A stretch of 32,000 nt of DNA, from assembly GCA_964351695.1 (NCBI GenBank), contig CAYGPE010000001.1, positions 85,106 to 117,105 on the forward strand. The letters are read 5' to 3'. Below the pieces are notes generated by a model that made no database searches, was not told where the DNA came from, and worked only from the letters and a program-made list of their open reading frames with translations. Shown piece after piece: positions 7,908 to 28,222 of this stretch (position 1 is its first letter; each line of letters opens with the position of its first letter). Position numbers and translations under genes: made by a program. Source of the stretch: an uncultured Hyphomonas sp. Its GTDB lineage: Bacteria; Pseudomonadota; Alphaproteobacteria; Caulobacterales; Hyphomonadaceae.

Positions 7908-8141
7908 ATGTCTATCCGTGTAACCCTCGACCGTGTTCTGCTCGATAAGCGTATGTCGTTGACTGAGCTTTCTGAGCGTGTGGGCGTTACCCTCGCCAAT
8001 CTTTCTATTCTCAAGACCGGAAAAGCCAAAGCGGTGCGGTTTTCAACACTGGAAGCCCTTTGTCGTGAGCTGGACTGCCAACCGGGCGATATATTGGAAT
8101 TTGAAACGCCAAAGTCTGAGGCGAAAAGCGAAGCGGCCTAG
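7908..8141 (+). CDS. XRE-family (YozG-like) HTH transcriptional regulator
   Basis: 'LDRVLLDKRMSLTELSERVGVTLANLSILKTGKAKAVRFSTLEALCRELDCQPGDILEF'. Confidence 0.8.
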   Translation: MSIRVTLDRVLLDKRMSLTELSERVGVTLANLSILKTGKAKAVRFSTLEALCRELDCQPGDILEFETPKSEAKSEAA

Positions 8142-8854
8142 AGCTTAACCCAGCCGAGCGCCATCATTGCCAATAGCAATGCACTCACGACGGCTAGCAG
8201 TGAGGGCAGCATCAATTCGATGAGTGTGAATTGCGGAAAATTTCGCTTCTTGGCGACATGGATTTGCCATTCGCGCGTAAACGGGGCGAACTCGAAATCT
8301 GCCTCCATTTCCCCAATGACTTCATACTTTGTCGCGCTTAAGCGGCGGGCGGCAATCACCATTGAAAGCCACAGAATCGCGTTCAGAAACGCTAAAAATA
8401 GCGCTGCTATGGTCACAGCCTGAATGGGAAATGTGTCATTGTCAGAATTGATCACGAACGAGATCGACACAAAGATCGCCACAAACACTGAAAAGTAGAA
8501 TCGGTTAAGGACTTGCCGGCGGTCTATGCCGTGTTCAGCGCTATCCACCATGACTTTGTAGAGTTCAAACCGGCGATCATAATCATATTCCCCCATGGTC
8601 TCGTCGCGGGCGACAACATAGGCGCCAATCGTGCCATTTGACACCGGCGCGCTCGTTCCGGCTGCATCTTGCGCAGCCATGAAGGCGCTGACCTTATCTA
8701 GCGTGCGGGTCTGAAATGTCTTGTCTGGATCAAATAGCCGTTCGCAGAAATCAGCTTGGCCAAGGGCTTCTTCACCGAACGTTTCGGCATTCATATTGTG
8801 CCGATCAAGGAAAGACCGGACTTGCTGTCTAAACGGATCGAGGAAAGTAGACAT
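8138..8854 (-). CDS. Membrane protein with an N-terminal soluble (possibly HTH-like) domain and a C-terminal 3-TM module; partner gene of the upstream TIR protein
   Basis: The ATG at 8854 is 9 nt after the TIR gene stop. Predicted TM helices lie at aa 117-135, 144-169 and 209-235. Motifs are 'FELYKVMVDSAEHGIDRRQVLNRFYF' before TM1 and 'LSATKYEVIGEMEADFEFAPFTREW' in the cytoplasmic loop. The stop overlaps the convergent XRE stop (CTAG, 8138-8141). Confidence 0.75.
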   Translation of the reverse strand: MSTFLDPFRQQVRSFLDRHNMNAETFGEEALGQADFCERLFDPDKTFQTRTLDKVSAFMAAQDAAGTSAPVSNGTIGAYVVARDETMGEYDYDRRFELYKVMVDSAEHGIDRRQVLNRFYFSVFVAIFVSISFVINSDNDTFPIQAVTIAALFLAFLNAILWLSMVIAARRLSATKYEVIGEMEADFEFAPFTREWQIHVAKKRNFPQFTLIELMLPSLLAVVSALLLAMMALGWVKL

Positions 8855-8863
8855 TTCGGTGAT

Positions 8864-10402
8864 CTACTTTTCCGACAAATCAGATGTGGCGAGCCTGATG
8901 GTGAACACCTTGTCGCGGACGTTGCGATCGATCCGCGCCCGGTTCGCAGCGCGGTGGTCATCCGGGTCTCGTCCCCATGCGCCGCCGCGCAAAACTCTGC
9001 GTCCGCAGTCGCCGTTTGTCCGCGCCGTTCCATCAACTGGGGCGGCCGTATATGAATTGACGTAGCAGTCTTGCACCCACTCACGCGCGTTCACCAACAT
9101 GCCTTTTACGCCAAATGGGTTTGCAGGCAGGCTGGCGGCGTCTCGCGGGGCGCTCATTGGCGCAATCGAGCGGTCAAAGCTGGCACCCCACCAATAGGGT
9201 GTGTTGGTTCCAGCGCGCGCAGCATATTCCCATTCTGCCTCAGTCGGCAGGCGATAGGCGCGTCCGGATTTGGCTGAGAGCCAGCTCGTATAAGACTGCG
9301 CATCTTGCCACGAAATGCTCAGCACAGGCAGGCCACCACGGCCAAAACCATGATCAGATGGTGAATATGAGCAGCCGCCATCGGCGATGCAGGCGTCCCA
9401 CTGATCAAATGTCACCTCTGTCTCACTGATCGCGAAAGGCTGGACCGTGACGGTGTGCAGTGGGCCTTCATTTCCGGTGCGGCCAAGCTCCGTATCGGGT
9501 GATCCCATCTGGAATGCCCCGCCAGGCAGGGCGATCATTGTTGGGCATGTATCACAATCTGCAAACTGGCCGGGCGTGGTGGTCGTCTCGGTCTCTGCGG
9601 TTTCGGTACTGTCTTGATCACCGCCGCCTGACATGGCTTGGATTACGAAATAGCCAGCCACGAGTGATAGCGCGGCGGCGCCAATGATCAAAGGCAATTT
9701 GCTCGAAGAAGACTTTTCATCCTGGCTTGTTATCGGCTTTTTGGGCGCAGGTTTTGGGGTGGGTTTAGTCGCGGGCGCTGCCACAGGTGCCTCTGGTTCG
9801 GGCGTCAACGCAGGTGTTAAAGAGGTGAGGCGATTGCGCGCAAGGTCCGAGAAATGGCCCTCAGGATAGCGTTTCAGGTAGGCCTCATAGTCAGACGCCT
9901 CCGTGCTGGCCTGTATTGTGGTCCAGAACGTATTCTCCATGGTGAGGTCAGAGGTTGGATCAGATGGAACCGTCTCAACCGCCATAGGCTCGGCGGGCGC
10001 CGCACCACCATGTGAGGCCACAGCAGATTTGATATCTGCGATAAAACGCTGCCAGCGCGCTTCTGTACGGTCGCCGTCCCAGCCGATAAGGTCAGCTGAC
10101 TGGGTTAGCTCGAACATAATCGGGCGTTCGGCATCATCGATCATCGCGGGAATGAGCGTAGATGTACGTTCGCCAAGTGTCGCCTCTGTGCGCACCCATT
10201 TTGATTTTACCGAAACCTCTGACCACAACACGACAACCACACTGGCGTCGCGTAGCATGCCCTCGGTCACTTCGTCATAGGTCTGTCCAGCCTTGAGGAT
10301 TTTATCCCACCAGACGGTGAGCCCCTCATCCTCAAGTGCGTGTGCGATCATCTCGGCGCGCGGACGATCCGCGCGGCTATAGGATAGAAAAATAACCGCC
10401 AA
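8864..10402 (-). CDS. TIR-domain membrane protein with a C-terminal extracytoplasmic FGE-sulfatase (SUMF1/EgtB/PvdO)-like domain
   Basis: TTG start at 10402 preceded by GAGGGAGAGGG. It opens with 'VIFLSYSRAD'. The next Met (aa 18) would delete the first TIR strand. A single TM follows, then 'RLPTEAEWEYAARAG' and 'RVLRGGAW' (FGE-sulfatase fold). Confidence 0.85.
   Translation of the reverse strand: MAVIFLSYSRADRPRAEMIAHALEDEGLTVWWDKILKAGQTYDEVTEGMLRDASVVVVLWSEVSVKSKWVRTEATLGERTSTLIPAMIDDAERPIMFELTQSADLIGWDGDRTEARWQRFIADIKSAVASHGGAAPAEPMAVETVPSDPTSDLTMENTFWTTIQASTEASDYEAYLKRYPEGHFSDLARNRLTSLTPALTPEPEAPVAAPATKPTPKPAPKKPITSQDEKSSSSKLPLIIGAAALSLVAGYFVIQAMSGGGDQDSTETAETETTTTPGQFADCDTCPTMIALPGGAFQMGSPDTELGRTGNEGPLHTVTVQPFAISETEVTFDQWDACIADGGCSYSPSDHGFGRGGLPVLSISWQDAQSYTSWLSAKSGRAYRLPTEAEWEYAARAGTNTPYWWGASFDRSIAPMSAPRDAASLPANPFGVKGMLVNAREWVQDCYVNSYTAAPVDGTARTNGDCGRRVLRGGAWGRDPDDHRAANRARIDRNVRDKVFTIRLATSDLSEK
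8888..9571 (-). other. FGE-sulfatase-like domain (aa 278-505), predicted periplasmic
   Basis: 'MIALPGGAFQMGS', 'LPVLSISWQDAQSYTSWLS', 'YRLPTEAEWEYAARAG' and 'RVLRGGAWGRDPDDHRAANR'. Six Cys occur here and none in aa 1-235. Confidence 0.75.
9635..9697 (-). other. Single transmembrane helix (aa 236-256)
   Basis: 'LPLIIGAAALSLVAGYFVIQA'. The Lys-rich 'KPAPKKP...K' segment lies before it and the acidic 'GGGDQDSTETAETE' segment after it, which indicates N-in/C-out. Confidence 0.75.
10073..10399 (-). other. TIR domain (aa 2-110) of the 512-aa protein
   Basis: 'VIFLSYSRADRPRAEMIAHALEDEGLTVWWD...VVVVLWSEVSVKSKWVRTEATLG'. Glu73 is at the position of the TIR catalytic Glu. Confidence 0.8.
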
Positions 10403-13840: not shown

Positions 13841-14725
13841 CTACTCGACCTGCCATGCGGTGAGGCTGCCTGGTTTCCAGTTGGGGACGATGATCAGGTC
13901 ACCAACGCGGGTAAGATCGTTTTGGTAGATCTCACCCGGTTCCGTATTCAGCAGCGAAACAACGCGTCCATCTGTGCCCACATGCCAGATCCGGCCCGGC
14001 CAGCTAGATACCAGATAGCTACCATCATCAAGGATTGCGATGCCATCAGCATCGGGCATGCCCGACGCAATCTCGGTTACAGTCTGGTCGCCTGAAATTG
14101 AAACAAGTTGGCCCGCCGACATGGTGGCCGCCAGCAAGGTATCGCCTTGTGGCAACAGGCCGTTCAAGCCGCCAAGGTCGTCGCCCTCGCGCCAGGCCTT
14201 GTAGCCGTTGACGTCGAGTTGAAAGATAGTGCCTGTCGCAGAGTCGGAGGCAAAAACACCATTTTGCCAAACCGTCACATCATTCAAGAAGCCCGCTTCG
14301 GGGACGTCATATGTGTTGATGATTTCGCCAGTCTCTACATCTATCGTGTGGTAGGCATCAATATCAGTAACAAACAGGACATCGCCGCGTACCGCCATAC
14401 CTTTTGGGGCGTTCAGGCCCTTTGCCCATTGCGCATCAAGAATGCGCCCATCCATGCTGACGCGGGAAATCCAACCCTCACCATCCTTATCTGCGGCCTC
14501 ACCTGAAACGTTGGAGATAAACAGCACGTCATTATATACGGCGACGCCTTCTGGGTCTGAGAAACCGTCTGTCTGCCACACTTGTTGCAGTTTCGGCGTG
14601 CCTGCACTAGGCATCTCTGCCTCCGACGAGGCAGCGGGTTCCGCTGGTGCAGCGCTGTTTTCGGTTGGTGCGCCCTGACTGCAGGCGGTAATCAGTGCGG
14701 CGAGTATCAAGGACTTAATTTGCAT
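13841..14725 (-). CDS. Lipoprotein with a beta-propeller fold (SMP-30/gluconolactonase/NHL-like)
   Basis: 'MQIKSLILAALITAC' carries a lipobox. Repeated 'G(V/M)AV..D.LF..D'-type strands follow. The family assignment is tentative. Confidence 0.6.
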   Translation of the reverse strand: MQIKSLILAALITACSQGAPTENSAAPAEPAASSEAEMPSAGTPKLQQVWQTDGFSDPEGVAVYNDVLFISNVSGEAADKDGEGWISRVSMDGRILDAQWAKGLNAPKGMAVRGDVLFVTDIDAYHTIDVETGEIINTYDVPEAGFLNDVTVWQNGVFASDSATGTIFQLDVNGYKAWREGDDLGGLNGLLPQGDTLLAATMSAGQLVSISGDQTVTEIASGMPDADGIAILDDGSYLVSSWPGRIWHVGTDGRVVSLLNTEPGEIYQNDLTRVGDLIIVPNWKPGSLTAWQVE

Positions 14726-16972: not shown

Positions 16973-18601
16973 CTATTCTGCAATTGGCGCGGGCGGGCAA
17001 GTAGCCACTGAGGACAGCAACAACCGCTTTGGCGCGAAGGTCAGACGTTTTTCAGTCCGTGCGACTTCGGTGCAATCTGGTGGCGGCGCTGTAAAGGCCA
17101 GTGTGTAACCAGCCCAGATATGCCGGCTGTCTGGCCGGTCCGACGTGCGACCGTCCCATGGTGCGAGCGGGTTTCTGACATAAGGGTGTACGAGATGAAC
17201 CGGATAGCCGATTAGCGAGGTATAGGTTCCCGCGGGGCTGGCAGTGACGTGCGTATCGACGGCGGCGGCAGCCCGGCGCAGGGACAGGCCCCAATAGTCT
17301 GTCTCAAAGGTTTCAGCATCGACATAGAGGCGCGAAATCTCGTTAAAATATATATAGTTATACGGAAACATTCGTACATTATCGACGATGAATACTGCGA
17401 GGCTTGCCGTCATGGCGAGGCGGGCGGTTTTATGCAGGGCAGGCCTGTTTGTCTTGATTTTGTGGATCGCGGCGACCAGCATGCAGACCAGTACCGGGAC
17501 GATAAACAAGATATGGCGCAGGCCGTCATAGACAGCCGAATTGCGCAAGATGATCAGCGCTAAGGGTACAATGACAGCGGCGGTAATTACCCGCTCCGCA
17601 GCCGTTCCGCGCAGCGCCAGATAAAGCGCAGCAGGCAGGGCGCCGAGCATCAGGACGAGGGGCCAACGCGCGCTGATCCACAGTATGAGATAGGACAGGA
17701 CTGACCAGTCATCTTTTTGCGGGGACAGGCAACTACCCGCACTTATCACGCACCCAACCCATTCATGCTGGCTCATATAGCTGATTGAAAGGATAACAAA
17801 TCGTACCGGTTCAAGCCAAGCTGGAGGCGTGATGATATAAATACCGACCAAGGTGACCAGGCTGCCAATCATCAGTGCGCGAAGGCGCGGCAGGCGCATA
17901 TCCGCCTGGAGGGCTACAAAGAGTAGTGCACTCCATTGTACAATCAGGAGCGGTGCCCCAAGAAGTTTAATTGAAGCTGATCCAATTGTCGCCGCGACGA
18001 CAAACCAAAGACCGCGATAAAAGTCGGCTTTTTCGTTGCCAAGCGCGATTATGGCGCCGTAAAGCGCTAGCACATAGAAAAAGGCTTGGGCCAGGTCTTT
18101 GTAATTAAACAATGCGTGGCCAAACCAGACTGGGTATAGCGCCAGAAACCCTGCGCCGATTAAGGCCATATTGACGTCCGCAGTCAGGCGGAGCAGTAAT
18201 TTATAGACGATGATGACTGATCCAGCGGCCCAGAGTAGGGCATTGAAATGTAGCGCCCAGCGGAACACAGCTTCATCTTGCGCGGCGTCTAAATCAAAAA
18301 AACTGTTCGCAAATCCGGTGACGATCTCTGCCGGCAAGACCGGCAGCAGGCCATAATACTCCATATTGAAATAGATATCTTCGAAATCTTTATTGAAATC
18401 ACCGCTAAGAACGGCACCAGCGAAGCGGCGTATCTCATCGAAACCATAGCGGTGAATATCCTGGTCCCATGTCTCGCCTACTAGCATTTGTGCGGCGGAA
18501 AAGACGATGAGGAGACAGGCCATTAGGAGCGCCTGTGTCGCTTTAGCGCGCGCGGCTATAAAGGTTTCGGCGAGGTGAAATAGGCGAGCGATCTGATCCA
18601 T
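16973..18601 (-). CDS. Polytopic membrane protein, GT-C-type (ArnT/PMT, GT39/83-like) glycosyltransferase candidate
   Basis: At least 10 hydrophobic helices, an acidic first loop ('FDEIRRF', 'DFEDIYF') and a C-terminal soluble domain with 'ETDYWG'. The family call is from memory. Confidence 0.5.
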   Translation of the reverse strand: MDQIARLFHLAETFIAARAKATQALLMACLLIVFSAAQMLVGETWDQDIHRYGFDEIRRFAGAVLSGDFNKDFEDIYFNMEYYGLLPVLPAEIVTGFANSFFDLDAAQDEAVFRWALHFNALLWAAGSVIIVYKLLLRLTADVNMALIGAGFLALYPVWFGHALFNYKDLAQAFFYVLALYGAIIALGNEKADFYRGLWFVVAATIGSASIKLLGAPLLIVQWSALLFVALQADMRLPRLRALMIGSLVTLVGIYIITPPAWLEPVRFVILSISYMSQHEWVGCVISAGSCLSPQKDDWSVLSYLILWISARWPLVLMLGALPAALYLALRGTAAERVITAAVIVPLALIILRNSAVYDGLRHILFIVPVLVCMLVAAIHKIKTNRPALHKTARLAMTASLAVFIVDNVRMFPYNYIYFNEISRLYVDAETFETDYWGLSLRRAAAAVDTHVTASPAGTYTSLIGYPVHLVHPYVRNPLAPWDGRTSDRPDSRHIWAGYTLAFTAPPPDCTEVARTEKRLTFAPKRLLLSSVATCPPAPIAE

Positions 18602-24433: not shown

Positions 24434-24745
24434 TCAAAGCTCAGACCATAGTCCTCGCGGTACGATCTCACTTATAATACGGTCCCAGACGCTGGTTTTA
24501 GAAATTTCGCAAACATTGTCGCCGATGGCAAAGCCGAAGGATTTCAGCCGGGGAGACGCGTCAAAGTCTTCTTTCGTAAGTATAGCGCGGGGGTAATGGC
24601 TTAATAGCTCGCCGGTCTCAGGATCCGTCTCGGTGATTTTGAACGCCAGTAGCGCCTCGCAAGCGCGATCAACATGCTTGCTCTGGTTCGCAAACGTAGC
24701 GCCCTTTTTAGCGGCTCGCTTCCGCGAGCTATCGGACGTCAGCGC
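24434..24745 (-). other. C-terminal ~100-aa domain of unknown function (aa 1160-1262)
   Basis: It follows a basic linker 'SSRKRAAKKG'. It holds the only two Cys residues of the roughly 1000-aa extracytoplasmic part (C1187 and C1238). Confidence 0.4.
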
Positions 24746-27700
24746 GCTAATGTCGAAAACGACAACGCCTTCGCCTGATAGCAATAGGGACTGACCGTCA
24801 GGCGCAAAATCAGCTAGGGAGCCTAAGGCGCTAGAACCGTCGCTGAGCGGGGTCTCGACAATGTTTTCAGTGGTATCGCGGGCTAGCATGATGGGCCCTT
24901 CCGGCCTATTCGCGAAGAAGAATCTCCCGTCCGGAGAGATATCCGATGCTGTGACACTTGGTCTGTCGTGAACTTTTTCCAGAATCCATGGCCCAGCAAT
25001 GGTTTTGCGGTAGAGCGGGGTTTCGAGAGGGTCTTTCACACTCTGCAGCAAAATCTGTTTTCCGTCTGCGGAGAAGTGTGCCGTTTTGAATTTGGTTTTA
25101 ACTCCCGTGCTTTCGCGCACCCATGCCCCGTCCGCTCCGCGCGTCCAACGATAAGCTAAACCGTCGATTCCCCAATTACGCCCGGTGATAAAGCTTTGGC
25201 TGTCTGGCGCGATGGCGATGCCTCCGAGTTTGTTTTCCACAGCATGAGTAGCCGCGGTCCAATTATTATCTTTGTCGCGGCTCCACACGGTGACGATACC
25301 AGATTCGTTATATGTCCATTCTGGATTTTCCCAGTCGGGATTGTGATGTCCAATGCTAACGAAGTAGCTCTCATCTGGGGCGAACTTTGCTGAAGTAAGT
25401 TCGAATATTCCGGTCTGCAGTGTCTGATATGGCCACAGGCCATCACTGGTTTCTTGCCAGATTTTCAATGTGTTTGAACGTTCTCCTTCGTCAACAACAT
25501 TTTCAATCGTTAGAATTGATTTTCCGCTTGGTGCGAGCTCGATCATTTTTATACTCGGGGGATTAGTCTCGAGTGCACTATCAAGCGCGAGTTTTTGCGT
25601 TTTTTCCCAAGGTCCGTCCGGTGCGCGGTCCCAGATTTGATATTCAGTTTTGTTAGCGCGCGTCAAAAAGCGATCACCAGCATCCGAAATACCGACAAAT
25701 TCTCCTCCAAGATGCTCTTTCACCGCGGCGCTTGTCCAGTCACCAAAATTGACCCATTCGCCTGCCGCGTTGCGCTCCCACAAGGACAGATATGAGTTGA
25801 ATGAACCCCTTCGACTAGCACCCTTTCGGCTGGCAACAATCTTGTTGCCGCCATCGATAAATTTCGCGTCGTAGCCTGCACGTGAAACGATTATCTCGGT
25901 GCGTGGTGGGTGTTCGAGATGAGCAGTGTCCCAGATACGAATTTCACCCGTATCGTCACGTGAAAACAATTGCGTTCCATCAGCCGTAAATTCGAGCCAG
26001 TTAATCGCGCTTTGGTGGCCGACAAATGGGATGACTTCTTTTAAAATGGGATGCTTCTGCCAATCTAATTTGCCAGTGATTTCGTAGACCAGAACCTGAC
26101 CGCCCCAAAATCCGAGCGCGAGCAATTTGTCATCGTCAGACCAGGCATAGCTGCGAATGTGATCGAACTTACTACCATTTAGGCCATTAACACTATTGAT
26201 CGCGCTTGCCTTGGTACTGAGCTTCCGGCTCTTCCACTGATTATATGGAGCTCGGTACACCAGATGAGCCACACCAGGTTTCTCGTAGCCGTCTCGCTCT
26301 TTCGTAAACGAATTGTAGACGAGCATGTCGCCGCTATTGGAAAAGACCGGGAATGTACGCGTGAAGGGGGGCCCTGTGACATCACCAAATCCATTTGATT
26401 GCCATTGTCCGGCTTCGTCTTTTTCCCAGATGTCGACTTTTTGACCTTTTGACCGTGTGGCAAAAACCCCCGGTTTCGGGGAGAAGAAGACGCCGCGCGT
26501 ATGCGTGTTGATCACTTGTGATGACCATGTGCCCGCTTCGGTCCGCTCAAATACTATGAAACTGCCCCAGGTGTCAGTCCCTGAGCCCAGAACGGGCCCC
26601 TCGACTTCCACGATGATCAACTGGCCTGCCGGTTCAACATAGACTTTAGTGATCCGCACAAAGGCCTCGTTCCACATCGTAGGTGGGGGCGGGTTGTTTG
26701 TTGTATCAGCTTGCTCTTCTGGAGCGTCAGTAATGGGCGCTCCAGAAGCTGGCTCTGGCTCTAAGGTTTCTTCTGTTTGAAGATCATAGGCAAGCTCCTG
26801 CATCTCCCACGCTCCGGTCTCGCTGCGCACCCAAAGGTTGGCGAGTTTGATCCGGTTTTCTTCAAAAAGCGGTCGGCCAAGCGGGAGTGCGACATGATTT
26901 AGCCAAGGCATGTGGCGGCGTTCATCAAGATGAGTTTGGTAAAATGCTTCCCACTGAGCGCTCGTGCGGGCAGCGAGTTTTTCATGGTCTGCAATTTTTT
27001 CGCCCGACCACTCCCAAGCCTCATCATGAGTCCAAAGCTCATAGTGATCATCGAACCTCATGAGTATTGTCGACTGATCGCCTTCGGAGTGCACAGTTAT
27101 TCTGTCTTCATGGAGGACGCCGCCTTCAATTATCGTGTCGCGCCTCCAGCTACCATCAGATTGCTTGCGCCACTGAGTGAGCACGTGGTCATTACCAGGA
27201 GTTGTGAGTGTGTTGCCATCTGGCGCCAAGATGGGTTGAGGGCCGCTGCCAGCGTTTAAAATCCCGCTCAACCGATTGTGCTGAATGGCGCGCGCCAGAC
27301 CGAGCTGCGATCCCGGCGCCGCAGGGCTAAGCGACGTATCTGTTGCCGCAAGGACGGAGAATTTGAGGGCGCGATCATATCGCCACTGTTCAAAAGCGAT
27401 GGAGGCTTCTGGCGCGATAACGCGTGATGTGGCCAGCGAAACATTTCGTGCGCCCTGGATCGTTGAGTAAGCCCCCCAGGCGGTGAGCGCCATCGCGGCC
27501 AGCCCGACAACAGCCGTGACCCTGCGCCAGAAGCGCTGACGACGCAGATCTGCCGCGACCCGTTTTCGGCTTTCCTCCAGATAAGCAAAAAACAGTTCGC
27601 CCGGTGCGTCTTCGTTTGAGGGGCGGCGGGCCGACCAGGCCTCAGCTTCAACAAGCGCGCCTTCGCGCAGCAACAAACCATTAGGGCGCGCTTTGCGATC

Positions 27701-28222
27701 CCATTCGGAGATGCGGTCGAACAGGCGGCGGCCCTCGCGGTGCCAACTGACATCTGTATTCAGGGCAAGCTCAGCCGCATCCATGGCGGCGTCAAAGCCG
27801 GGCCCGCCCTCTGAAAAGTCGATTTGAACATTCAGAGCGGCGAGGCGGGGCGGGGCCTTGGCAAAATCAATGTCCTGAACTTTGACAGCGATAATGCGCT
27901 TTCCAAGGGCCCGAGCATAGGCAATTTCCTCGTCGCACACGACGCTGCCAGATGAGCCGGGAGATACCAGAAACAGCATCACATCGCAGGCGGCAATCAT
28001 CTCCTGAATACGCACCCACCATTCGTCTTCAGCTGAAATCCCGCCTGAAATCTGATGGGGGTCATAGGTTGCCTGATCAAAGTCTGGTTCGAAGCCGCGC
28101 GCCCTCAGGGCGTCAGCGATTTGACGCATGAAGGCTTCGTTTTGGCGTGAATAAGAAAGAAACACCCTCAATCGATCGGTGTTATCCCCAGCATTTTCCT
28201 CAACGACTTGTTGCTCAGTCAT
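24434..28222 (-). CDS. Giant TIR-domain membrane protein: N-terminal TIR, helical linker, one TM, about 14 WD40/PD40-like beta-propeller blades, and a C-terminal ~100-aa unknown domain
   Basis: ATG at 28222. 'RVFLSYSRQNEAFMRQIADAL...VMLFLVSPGSSGSVVCDEEIAYA' is the TIR domain. The TM is 'VTAVVGLAAMALTAWGAYSTI'. Recurrent '[FI][AS]PDG' and '[ILV]W.[RKE]...G.W' blade motifs follow. Confidence 0.85.
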   Translation of the reverse strand: MTEQQVVEENAGDNTDRLRVFLSYSRQNEAFMRQIADALRARGFEPDFDQATYDPHQISGGISAEDEWWVRIQEMIAACDVMLFLVSPGSSGSVVCDEEIAYARALGKRIIAVKVQDIDFAKAPPRLAALNVQIDFSEGGPGFDAAMDAAELALNTDVSWHREGRRLFDRISEWDRKARPNGLLLREGALVEAEAWSARRPSNEDAPGELFFAYLEESRKRVAADLRRQRFWRRVTAVVGLAAMALTAWGAYSTIQGARNVSLATSRVIAPEASIAFEQWRYDRALKFSVLAATDTSLSPAAPGSQLGLARAIQHNRLSGILNAGSGPQPILAPDGNTLTTPGNDHVLTQWRKQSDGSWRRDTIIEGGVLHEDRITVHSEGDQSTILMRFDDHYELWTHDEAWEWSGEKIADHEKLAARTSAQWEAFYQTHLDERRHMPWLNHVALPLGRPLFEENRIKLANLWVRSETGAWEMQELAYDLQTEETLEPEPASGAPITDAPEEQADTTNNPPPPTMWNEAFVRITKVYVEPAGQLIIVEVEGPVLGSGTDTWGSFIVFERTEAGTWSSQVINTHTRGVFFSPKPGVFATRSKGQKVDIWEKDEAGQWQSNGFGDVTGPPFTRTFPVFSNSGDMLVYNSFTKERDGYEKPGVAHLVYRAPYNQWKSRKLSTKASAINSVNGLNGSKFDHIRSYAWSDDDKLLALGFWGGQVLVYEITGKLDWQKHPILKEVIPFVGHQSAINWLEFTADGTQLFSRDDTGEIRIWDTAHLEHPPRTEIIVSRAGYDAKFIDGGNKIVASRKGASRRGSFNSYLSLWERNAAGEWVNFGDWTSAAVKEHLGGEFVGISDAGDRFLTRANKTEYQIWDRAPDGPWEKTQKLALDSALETNPPSIKMIELAPSGKSILTIENVVDEGERSNTLKIWQETSDGLWPYQTLQTGIFELTSAKFAPDESYFVSIGHHNPDWENPEWTYNESGIVTVWSRDKDNNWTAATHAVENKLGGIAIAPDSQSFITGRNWGIDGLAYRWTRGADGAWVRESTGVKTKFKTAHFSADGKQILLQSVKDPLETPLYRKTIAGPWILEKVHDRPSVTASDISPDGRFFFANRPEGPIMLARDTTENIVETPLSDGSSALGSLADFAPDGQSLLLSGEGVVVFDISALTSDSSRKRAAKKGATFANQSKHVDRACEALLAFKITETDPETGELLSHYPRAILTKEDFDASPRLKSFGFAIGDNVCEISKTSVWDRIISEIVPRGLWSEL
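24986..27172 (-). repeat. Protein-level tandem array of about 14 beta-propeller blade repeats (aa 351-1079)
   Basis: Blade-end motifs at aa 351, 397, 464, 558, 599, 656, 713, 764, 815, 864, 922, 980, 1026 and 1071. Examples are 'IWEKDEAGQW', 'LWERNAAGEW', 'IWDRAPDGPW', 'IWQETSDGLW' and 'RWTRGADGAW'. Spacing is 41-94 aa. Confidence 0.7.
27458..27520 (-). other. Single transmembrane helix (aa 235-255)
   Basis: It is preceded by 'RKRVAADLRRQRFWRR', a positive-inside signal that predicts N-in/C-out. Confidence 0.75.
27872..28171 (-). other. TIR domain (aa 18-117) of the 1262-aa protein
   Basis: It opens with 'FLSYSR'. E98/E99 in 'VVCDEEIAYA' sit at the catalytic-Glu position. Confidence 0.8.

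Follow-up and report, generated by a model that had tools for sequence, protein, structure and literature searches.

A predicted membrane-spanning TIR-propeller protein from a Hyphomonas sp. and the TIR-linker family to which it belongs

TIR domains joined to sensors

TIR domains coupled to sensors are found in several described systems. In SPARTA TIR-APAZ, TIR-SAVED, TIR-STING and SARM1, a cytoplasmic sensor that binds nucleic acids or cyclic nucleotides is combined with a TIR domain carrying a catalytic Glu, and TIR activity depends on oligomerisation. In animal Toll-like receptors (TLRs), a sensor built of repeats stands outside the cell and is connected through one membrane helix to a TIR domain inside. 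To our knowledge, nearly all characterised bacterial anti-phage sensors act in the cytoplasm, and outside-in sensing with a TIR domain as its end point is considered a feature of animals. The gene considered here encodes a bacterial protein for which a comparable layout is predicted. It occupies positions 24434..28222, on the minus strand, of a 32,000-nucleotide stretch of DNA from an uncultured Hyphomonas sp. (hereafter the window; NCBI GenBank assembly GCA_964351695.1, contig CAYGPE010000001.1, positions 85,106 to 117,105), begins with an ATG codon, and codes for 1262 residues followed by a stop codon. A previous reading made from the letters of the DNA (the sequence-only reading) had called this open reading frame (ORF) with its strand left unstated; the ORF is real, and every motif quoted for it is found in the sequence. 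An identical protein (P0001) is present in an NCBI assembly.

From its N-terminus, the protein comprises a TIR domain, a helical linker, a predicted membrane helix and a Cys-poor region modelled as WD40-like propellers and ending in a small alpha/beta domain. Judged by its sequence, it is a one-unit member of a family with the architecture (TIR + linker) x 1-7, membrane helix, extracytoplasmic sensor. With a little better than even confidence, it can be regarded as an outside-in receptor encoded by a single gene, in which clustering driven by a ligand would lead to NAD+ cleavage by the TIR domain, probably for defence against phages or competitors.

The parallel with TLRs, drawn by the sequence-only reading, holds for the predicted topology (TIR inside, helix, sensor outside). 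Activation by ligand-induced proximity of TIR domains would also be expected in both cases, and the TIR domain itself, assigned to Pfam TIR_2, has fold matches to TLR10, TLR15 and MyD88. Nevertheless, the chain order is inverted, with the TIR domain at the N-terminus and a type II signal anchor in place of a signal peptide, and the ectodomain is predicted to be an all-beta, WD40-like propeller region with no match to any leucine-rich repeat family. The TIR domain keeps a Glu of the catalytic type and is therefore probably an enzyme rather than a scaffold that recruits adaptors; no adaptor-like TIR gene is adjacent, and nothing points to an adaptor or kinase cascade. The two architectures thus resemble each other by convergence and in topology only, and the protein is not a member of the TLR family. 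With the SPARTA, SAVED, STING and SARM1 proteins, it shares a TIR domain with a catalytic-type Glu joined to a sensor, whereas its sensor is predicted to be periplasmic, composed of WD40 blades and placed behind a membrane helix.

The linker domain and its family

The helical linker domain (aa 156-234; 27521..27757, minus strand) carries the conserved pattern 'W.RE..R....EW......LLR.....EAE.W..RRP'. Its helices in the AlphaFold model cover aa 158-176, aa 187-198 and aa 209 onward. No Pfam family covers these approximately 80 residues; a hidden Markov model (HMM) of our own places the domain at aa 152-234 (E-value 1.2e-32). A word-indexed homolog search with the linker profile gave short fragments only, and an exhaustive search of the same profile against 1.84 billion representative proteins gave 8196 representatives at E <= 1e-3, with 5395 at E <= 1e-10. 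This result indicates that the protein is not a singular oddity. The novelty claimed for it consequently applies to the family, since the literature yielded no description of a bacterial TIR-membrane helix-propeller protein or of a TIR-linker family, but not to the gene alone, as all these representatives share its linker. The newly delimited 80-residue linker marks the family and makes it searchable.

The top 150 linker matches were ordered by summed score, a ranking that favours multi-copy proteins. Each linker unit among them directly follows a TIR domain. Nearly all are tandem TIR+linker arrays, in which three units are the commonest number (109 proteins) and seven the maximum; such arrays are suggestive, as they would fit a need for contact between TIR domains. 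When at least 150 residues extend beyond the last linker, a hydrophobic helix is found at its end in 117 of 137 proteins, and at least four WD40 repeats continue after the helix in 50 of those 117. The regions that follow the helix in family members are either WD40 propellers or classical extracytoplasmic sensors such as Cache and CHASE2. Source names were available for six of ten proteins looked up, four of them cyanobacterial (Leptolyngbya twice, Cyanothece and Oculatellaceae), and all six carry generic labels only, for example 'TIR domain-containing protein'. The closer relatives of the protein are single-unit proteins, mostly from Hyphomonas, other Hyphomonadaceae, Hyphomicrobiaceae and Oceanicaulis, together with a few from metagenome-assembled genomes labelled Acidobacteria, Anaerolineales, Acidimicrobiia and Algoriphagus.

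The features that define the family are all recognised in the protein from the window. According to our own HMMs, the TIR domain is directly followed by the linker. A hydrophobic helix comes after the linker and is preceded by a stretch rich in Lys and Arg (K/R), this helix being the weakest in the family. Finally, the C-terminal sensor, which in the family can be of the WD40, Cache, CHASE2, TPR or Sel1 type, is large, poor in Cys and, as in the WD40 members, equipped with a Cys pair (about 16 blades in the model, C1188 and C1238).

The TIR domain and its candidate catalytic glutamate

The TIR domain (aa 17-155; 27758..28174, minus strand) is detected by Pfam TIR_2 at aa 20-147 (E-value 2.2e-16, 60.9 bits for a cut-off of 28) and by our own HMM at aa 17-151 (E-value 2.6e-65). 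An AlphaFold model computed for aa 1-300 from an alignment of 62 sequences (pLDDT 89.7) displays the TIR fold at aa 19-154. The best Foldseek match of this fold is the TIR domain of SPARTA TIR-APAZ, a NADase (E-value 2.6e-6), followed by RPP1, MyD88, TIR-STING and TLRs. Searches of PDB sequences with the TIR domain alone and with an N-terminal profile returned no real match to any solved TIR domain, so that this one is remote from all of them.

Glu99, within 'VVCDEEIAYA' (codon 27926..27928, minus strand), presumably corresponds to the Glu that is catalytic in TIR NADases, an equivalence that we take from the known TIR motif 'S..S..C..E[IL]' and not from an alignment to a solved TIR. Five residues, D49, S93, E99, K108 and W174, do not vary across the 62 aligned sequences. 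The N-terminal TIR domain with a retained Glu, as first read from the sequence, is thus corroborated by family match, modelled fold and conservation, and the invariance of Glu99 suggests an enzyme rather than an adaptor scaffold.

The likeness to ThsB of the Thoeris system lies in a TIR_2/ThsB-like TIR domain and is weak (Pfam ThsB_TIR, E-value 0.0045; PADLOC ThsB, E-value 1.5e-4). The scores stay below the respective cut-offs (17.8 bits vs 21.2 for Pfam ThsB_TIR and 27.2 bits vs 220 for NCBIfam ThcB4), no ThsA-type effector (SIR2, Macro, SLOG) is adjacent at the locus and none is conserved in relatives. Furthermore, unlike ThsB, the protein is much larger and has a membrane helix and propellers. 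An identity as Thoeris, CBASS, Pycsar or Avs was ruled out, the matches in PADLOC, NCBIfam and Pfam being weak and confined to the TIR level.

An effector domain joined to a repeat sensor is also the arrangement of STAND/NLR-like proteins (Avs, bNACHT, TIR-NLR, nSTAND-WD40). The protein differs from them as no NTPase lies between effector and sensor: the Walker A pattern [AG]xxxxGK[ST] has no match in its sequence, and Pfam detects no NTPase family in it. It was therefore correctly set apart from AVAST/NLR-like STAND proteins by the sequence-only reading, and its oligomerisation cannot be driven by NTP.

Predicted membrane helix and topology

The predicted membrane helix (aa 235-255, 'VTAVVGLAAMALTAWGAYSTI'; 27458..27520, minus strand) is assigned from hydrophobicity, charge and homologs, and would serve as a signal anchor with the N-terminus inside. 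Of all 19-mers in the protein, aa 237-255 is the most hydrophobic, and one uninterrupted helix, aa 209-278, runs through this segment in the AlphaFold model. Eight K/R are counted in the 20 residues before the helix vs two in the 20 residues after it, a positive-inside pattern for an N-in orientation. The positive-inside transmembrane segment announced from the sequence is thus upheld by its charges, whereas its hydrophobicity turns out to be marginal. Because of this marginal helix, the argument on topology has to be comparative.

About 80 of 110 homologs have a strongly hydrophobic 19-mer (Kyte-Doolittle 1.8-2.9) at the corresponding position. The 15 residues before the helix contain more K/R than the 15 after it, with a mean of 5.1 vs 2.3 and a higher number before in 83 of 85 proteins; in a second, independent set, the means are 5.2 vs 2.3 and the number is higher before in 108 of 117. 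The Cys content after the helix has a median of 0.22 per 100 aa, with an even count in 68 of 77 proteins, vs 1.28 in helix-less relatives (p about 1e-5), and the second set gives 0.36 vs 0.83 per 100 aa with and without a helix (p 7e-4); as the members of each set share ancestry, these topology statistics are not phylogenetically independent. The protein itself has exactly two Cys in the 1007 residues after the helix, vs 7-14 in the seven helix-less relatives scored. Two conserved Cys only would fit an oxidising compartment and one disulfide.

Sister proteins provide a further line. Directly after the same helix, some carry dCache_1, some dCache_2 enclosed by two membrane helices, and others CHASE2. 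Cache and CHASE2 domains are established extracytoplasmic sensors. The proteins that bear them as transmembrane sensors share with the protein described here an extracytoplasmic sensor (predicted in this case), one or several membrane helices and a cytoplasmic output. The differences are that an N-terminal TIR domain and its dedicated linker take the place of a kinase, cyclase or caspase as the output, and that its sensor is modelled as a double propeller. Conflict-system proteins with extracellular CHASE2 and membrane helices have been described, for example a caspase with CHASE2 (Kaur et al. 2021, PMC8195603), and membrane-proximal iSTAND and GAP1 systems have been noted as conflict-system examples (PMC7159879).

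The hydrophobic segment might also fail to span the membrane, in which case the protein would be cytoplasmic or peripheral and its WD40 region would sense a cytoplasmic trigger. Some facts speak in this sense and thereby weigh against a transmembrane receptor. The helix is Ala-rich and marginal, with a Kyte-Doolittle value of 1.47 and a summed, position-free Hessa-scale energy of +2.8 kcal/mol, whereas relatives range from -1.3 to +1.35. Most canonical WD40 proteins reside in the cytoplasm. There are also close relatives that share the TIR domain, linker and neck (the region between helix and propellers) but have no post-linker helix, some being tail-anchored instead. However, the segment aligns with the clearly hydrophobic helices of relatives and is followed by the same Cache or CHASE2 sensors in sister proteins, the K/R imbalance and the low Cys count given above are those of the helix-bearing members, and the 82 residues of helix and neck are identical between orthologs. 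A cytoplasmic location is on these grounds improbable. For this protein, a topology with the TIR domain in and the sensor out is most likely, as supported by several independent computational lines; the structure models agree with a cytoplasmic TIR, one helix and external propellers. This arrangement, proposed in the sequence-only reading, gains from helix position, charge, Cys content and the sister sensors, and loses from a helix that is the weakest of its family.

Regarding the tail-anchored relatives, P0066 and P0072 lack a post-linker helix and have a hydrophobic helix at their extreme C-terminus; they would be attached to the membrane while facing the cytoplasm. Cytoplasm-facing and periplasm-facing versions of the family both appear to exist, and the contrast in Cys content follows this difference.

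Neck, propellers and C-terminal domain

The membrane helix is followed by a helical neck (aa 256-318; 27269..27457, minus strand), modelled as three helices between membrane helix and propellers. In the model of aa 1-300, a further helix at aa 282-293 comes after the long helix of aa 209-278. The neck motif 'RALKFSVLAATDTSLSPAA' is conserved and is also kept in relatives without the post-linker helix.

Approximately 16 WD40-like, four-stranded blades are predicted from the model and from Foldseek at aa 319-1160 (24743..27268, minus strand). The model of aa 256-1262 (pLDDT 71, pTM 0.65) contains the three neck helices and then 61 strands, which form 16 four-stranded blades when grouped by the recurring '...W..' third strand (16 'C' strands). 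Disordered inserts interrupt the propeller region at aa 482-519 and aa 670-697. The relative P0007 has 16 regular WD40 repeats. The 14 blades first counted on the sequence are hence to be replaced by about 16, a number that would be enough for two propellers. In Pfam, one WD40 repeat lies above the cut-off (aa 733-765) and many propeller families are found below threshold around aa 680-770. The best Foldseek match is 2ymu_A, 'a highly repetitive propeller structure' (E-value 5e-23), with tandem-propeller proteins (Utp, Pwp2, EML-like) coming next. Structure prediction, which had been put forward as a check, has thus recovered both the TIR fold and the propeller matches.

The chain ends with a small alpha/beta domain (aa 1161-1262; 24437..24742, minus strand) holding the conserved pair C1188 (codon 24659-24661, minus strand) and C1238 (codon 24509-24511, minus strand). 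These two residues are the sole Cys after the helix, and the conservation of each reaches at least 90% in a set of 33 relatives that have the helix. Comparable tails occur in cyanobacterial members, where the usual number of Cys after the helix is likewise two, located in a C-terminal 'GC.W...YL ... DR.LC' motif. A C1188-C1238 disulfide is probable.

The protein P0109 from Chloroflexota, labelled 'AAA family ATPase', consists of an nSTAND1 NTPase, a strong membrane helix (aa 546-564) and WD40 repeats. Its tail 'C..VARNLTWDEWQEYLG...YRQTC' holds its only two Cys after the helix. Since P0109 shares the module made of membrane helix, WD40 region and C-terminal Cys pair, this ectodomain chassis is also combined with other cytoplasmic heads, and STAND NTPases apparently also come with extracytoplasmic propellers.

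Selection and divergence

Selection was estimated region by region, as the ratio of nonsynonymous to synonymous substitution rates (dN/dS), between the gene and its 82% identical ortholog. The ratio is 0.037 for the TIR domain, 0.031 for the linker and 0 for the membrane helix plus neck, where 82 of 82 residues (aa 237-318) are identical despite a dS of 0.57. It reaches 0.28-0.32 in the propellers and 0.089 in the C-terminal domain. By this measure, the rate of evolution is about eight times higher in the propellers than in the TIR domain. Identity to homologs likewise amounts to about 50% at the N-terminus and falls below 25% in the ectodomain. Such a regional pattern indicates a functional gene. 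As read from these substitutions, helix and neck are under much stronger constraint than anchoring alone would require, and the fast evolution of the propellers is as expected of a sensor surface.

These rates also bear on a structural role. The protein might be a component or scaffold of the envelope, similar to TolB or BamB, in which the TIR domain would be a non-catalytic interaction module. Periplasmic propellers are often scaffolds, the flagellar gene neighbourhood described below is suggestive, and all solved TIR domains are distant from this one in sequence. Against this, Glu99 and the four other TIR residues are invariant, the TIR domain is under very strong purifying selection, relatives display tandem TIR arrays and fusions to caspase or patatin, and a quick evolution of the propellers is unexpected of a structural scaffold. 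A scaffold of this kind is accordingly very improbable.

The dS between the gene and its ortholog is very uneven (TIR 1.42, linker 0.72, propellers 0.31-0.58), which a mosaic origin of the sensor region or recombination within it might explain. The G+C content is 50-52% in the propeller-coding part (window 24500-26500) vs 58-59% in the 5' part of the gene, and 56-64% in the upstream flanking genes.

Genomic context of the gene and its relatives

Upstream, the gene is flanked by genes for DUF454/YbaN, MnmA and a beta-lactamase-fold protein, and downstream by DUF1153 (SciP-like), a 215-aa ORF with no assigned function, FliG, FliN and an FlhF-like gene. This agrees with the ybaN-mnmA and sciP neighbours named by the sequence-only reading, and also with its remark that no effector gene is adjacent: the neighbours are housekeeping or flagellar genes, and no partner is conserved across relatives. 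The gene order is the same around the ortholog, which lies on a metagenomic contig (L001 10001-13807). A scan for promoters and terminators around the gene gave counts that did not exceed those of shuffled controls, and Rfam and tRNA scans of the window gave no matches.

Clustering of the flanking ORFs of 38 loci revealed no partner gene conserved across clades. In the window, as in Oceanicaulis and Ideonella, the gene is isolated among housekeeping genes. Other relatives are found in mobile or defence-like surroundings. P0007 adjoins a phage integrase, DndB and a weak HATPase_c_3 match, and P0054 is located among phage remnants and GmrSD. In Hyphomonas sp. Mor2 (L038 1-14272, CP017718.1), five adjacent TIR genes stand beside an rve transposase; they encode a TIR-linker-caspase, a TIR-helix-FGE-sulfatase and three TIR-linker-WD40 proteins. 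The helix is present in two of these three WD40 genes, with four and two Cys beyond it, and the third has no helix near the linker and nine Cys beyond aa 78. A TIR-WD40-patatin fusion of 1153 aa (L026 4041-7502) is encoded beside a 1413-aa WD40 protein, and a separate patatin gene (L030 11237-12496) is found near a 1421-aa TIR-WD40 protein. Surroundings of this kind, together with the caspase and patatin fusions, would give these relatives the flavour of conflict systems. Taken together, the contexts suggest that single genes act as complete systems and that their repertoire of receptors is diversifying.

Members of one Hyphomonas clade carry, after the TIR-helix-propeller gene, a gene for a 1420-1432-aa Trypsin_2 protein that has no membrane helix. 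This trypsin gene occurs in 15 loci of that clade (including L002 11696-15961 and L005 7790-12088) and is absent elsewhere; the Trypsin_2 protein (1420 aa) was therefore rejected as a conserved partner, being restricted to one clade. By eye only, its C-terminus resembles a peptidoglycan-binding domain. DUF1353, RyR and Y_phosphatase3 genes come after it in L002 and L005.

A second gene of the TIR-membrane helix-ectodomain type is found in the window itself (8864-10402, minus strand). Its product of 512 aa starts with a TIR_2 domain (aa 4-111, E-value 1.6e-19), continues with a different linker bearing a 'YEAYLKRYPEGHFSDLARNRL' motif and a Pro/Ala-rich spacer, and, after the helix 'LPLIIGAAALSLVAGYFVIQAM', ends with an FGE-sulfatase domain (aa 286-494, E-value 1.5e-47) with six Cys. 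The combination of TIR and FGE-sulfatase also occurs in Hyphomonas sp. Mor2, beside its TIR-WD40 genes. Directly 3' of the TIR-FGE-sulfatase gene in the window, a 238-aa protein of the Pfam 8xMP family ('octameric membrane protein') with three hydrophobic helices is encoded (8138-8854, minus strand). It might act as the membrane effector partner of the TIR-FGE-sulfatase protein; it has no match in PADLOC, and no literature on it was found.

The same contexts have to be weighed for a different use of the same architecture, namely ordinary one-component signalling, in which a cue from the envelope or the environment would lead to a non-lethal NAD-derived messenger or to a tuning of NAD+, for instance in motility or the cell cycle. 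Family members do carry Cache and CHASE2, small-molecule sensors typical of signal transduction. The gene is under strong purifying selection and has been stably kept in one gene order beside sciP and flagellar genes, with no defence island here. On the other side, no conserved receptor or effector of a messenger is located nearby in any clade, and paralogs arrayed with exchanged sensors, transposase or integrase genes nearby, and fusions to caspase or patatin all resemble conflict systems. A fast-evolving sensor is also more typical of immune receptors. Altogether, signalling of this type is a serious but rather unlikely explanation.

Proposed mechanism and significance

In the outside-in receptor that we favour, the protein would be a single-pass, N-in/C-out protein of the inner membrane, with the TIR domain and the 80-residue linker in the cytoplasm. 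About 1000 residues would be periplasmic, that is, the neck, the approximately 16 blades forming two propellers and the small domain with its probable disulfide. At rest, the TIR domains would be held apart. A ligand, for which a phage, a component derived from a competitor or a product of envelope damage are candidates, would bind the fast-evolving periplasmic propellers and cluster or re-orient the receptors. The rigid and conserved helix plus neck would relay this change across the membrane, and the TIR domains would then assemble into the oligomer required for TIR enzyme activity. As for single-unit proteins such as this one, assembly would have to take place between molecules. Glu99 would then cleave NAD+, and either its depletion or a signal derived from ADP-ribose would lead to cell arrest or death. 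As a conserved partner gene is lacking, the TIR domain is taken to be the effector itself, most simply by NAD+ depletion; alternatively, a diffusible product might act on an unlinked target. Domain content, family membership, conservation and the statistics on topology are computational results, whereas the orientation of this particular protein, its catalysis, its activation by clustering and a role in defence are inferences.

Several points weigh against such a defence receptor, in addition to the marginal helix discussed above. The setting is housekeeping and flagellar, the gene order is kept in the 82% identical ortholog and no defence island is found here. PADLOC and NCBIfam give only weak, TIR-level matches for the protein. 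The Cache and CHASE2 variants could equally indicate ordinary environmental signalling, the two C-terminal Cys are not necessarily linked by a disulfide, and no experiment on any family member was found in the literature.

If topology and NADase output hold, bacteria would have independently built a repeat sensor outside, one helix and a TIR domain inside. The gene would then offer a single-gene, genetically tractable model for the transmembrane switching of a TIR enzyme, and the family a new place to seek envelope-level immunity or the sensing of kin and competitors. The family is prominent in cyanobacteria and in Hyphomonas-like alphaproteobacteria and comprises thousands of representative clusters.

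A broader proposal is tentative. The family might stand for a large, unrecognised bacterial class of pattern-recognition receptors at the surface, consisting of an extracytoplasmic sensor, a helix, a linker and one or several cytoplasmic TIR NADases. Such receptors would detect phages, competitors or envelope damage from outside, prior to or in the absence of entry into the cytoplasm, and would respond by cleaving NAD+. Propellers, Cache, CHASE2, FGE-sulfatase or TPR would be the sensors of this class, and genomes would carry repertoires of such receptors, as with the two in this window and the five in a row in Hyphomonas sp. Mor2, where helix-bearing and helix-less versions stand side by side.

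Other genes of the window

Two more genes of the window may be mentioned besides those above. A 542-aa ORF without a Pfam or PADLOC match follows dnaK (16973-18601, minus strand). Between grpE and dnaK, a 294-aa propeller protein similar to PQQ_2/BamB is encoded (13841-14725, minus strand).

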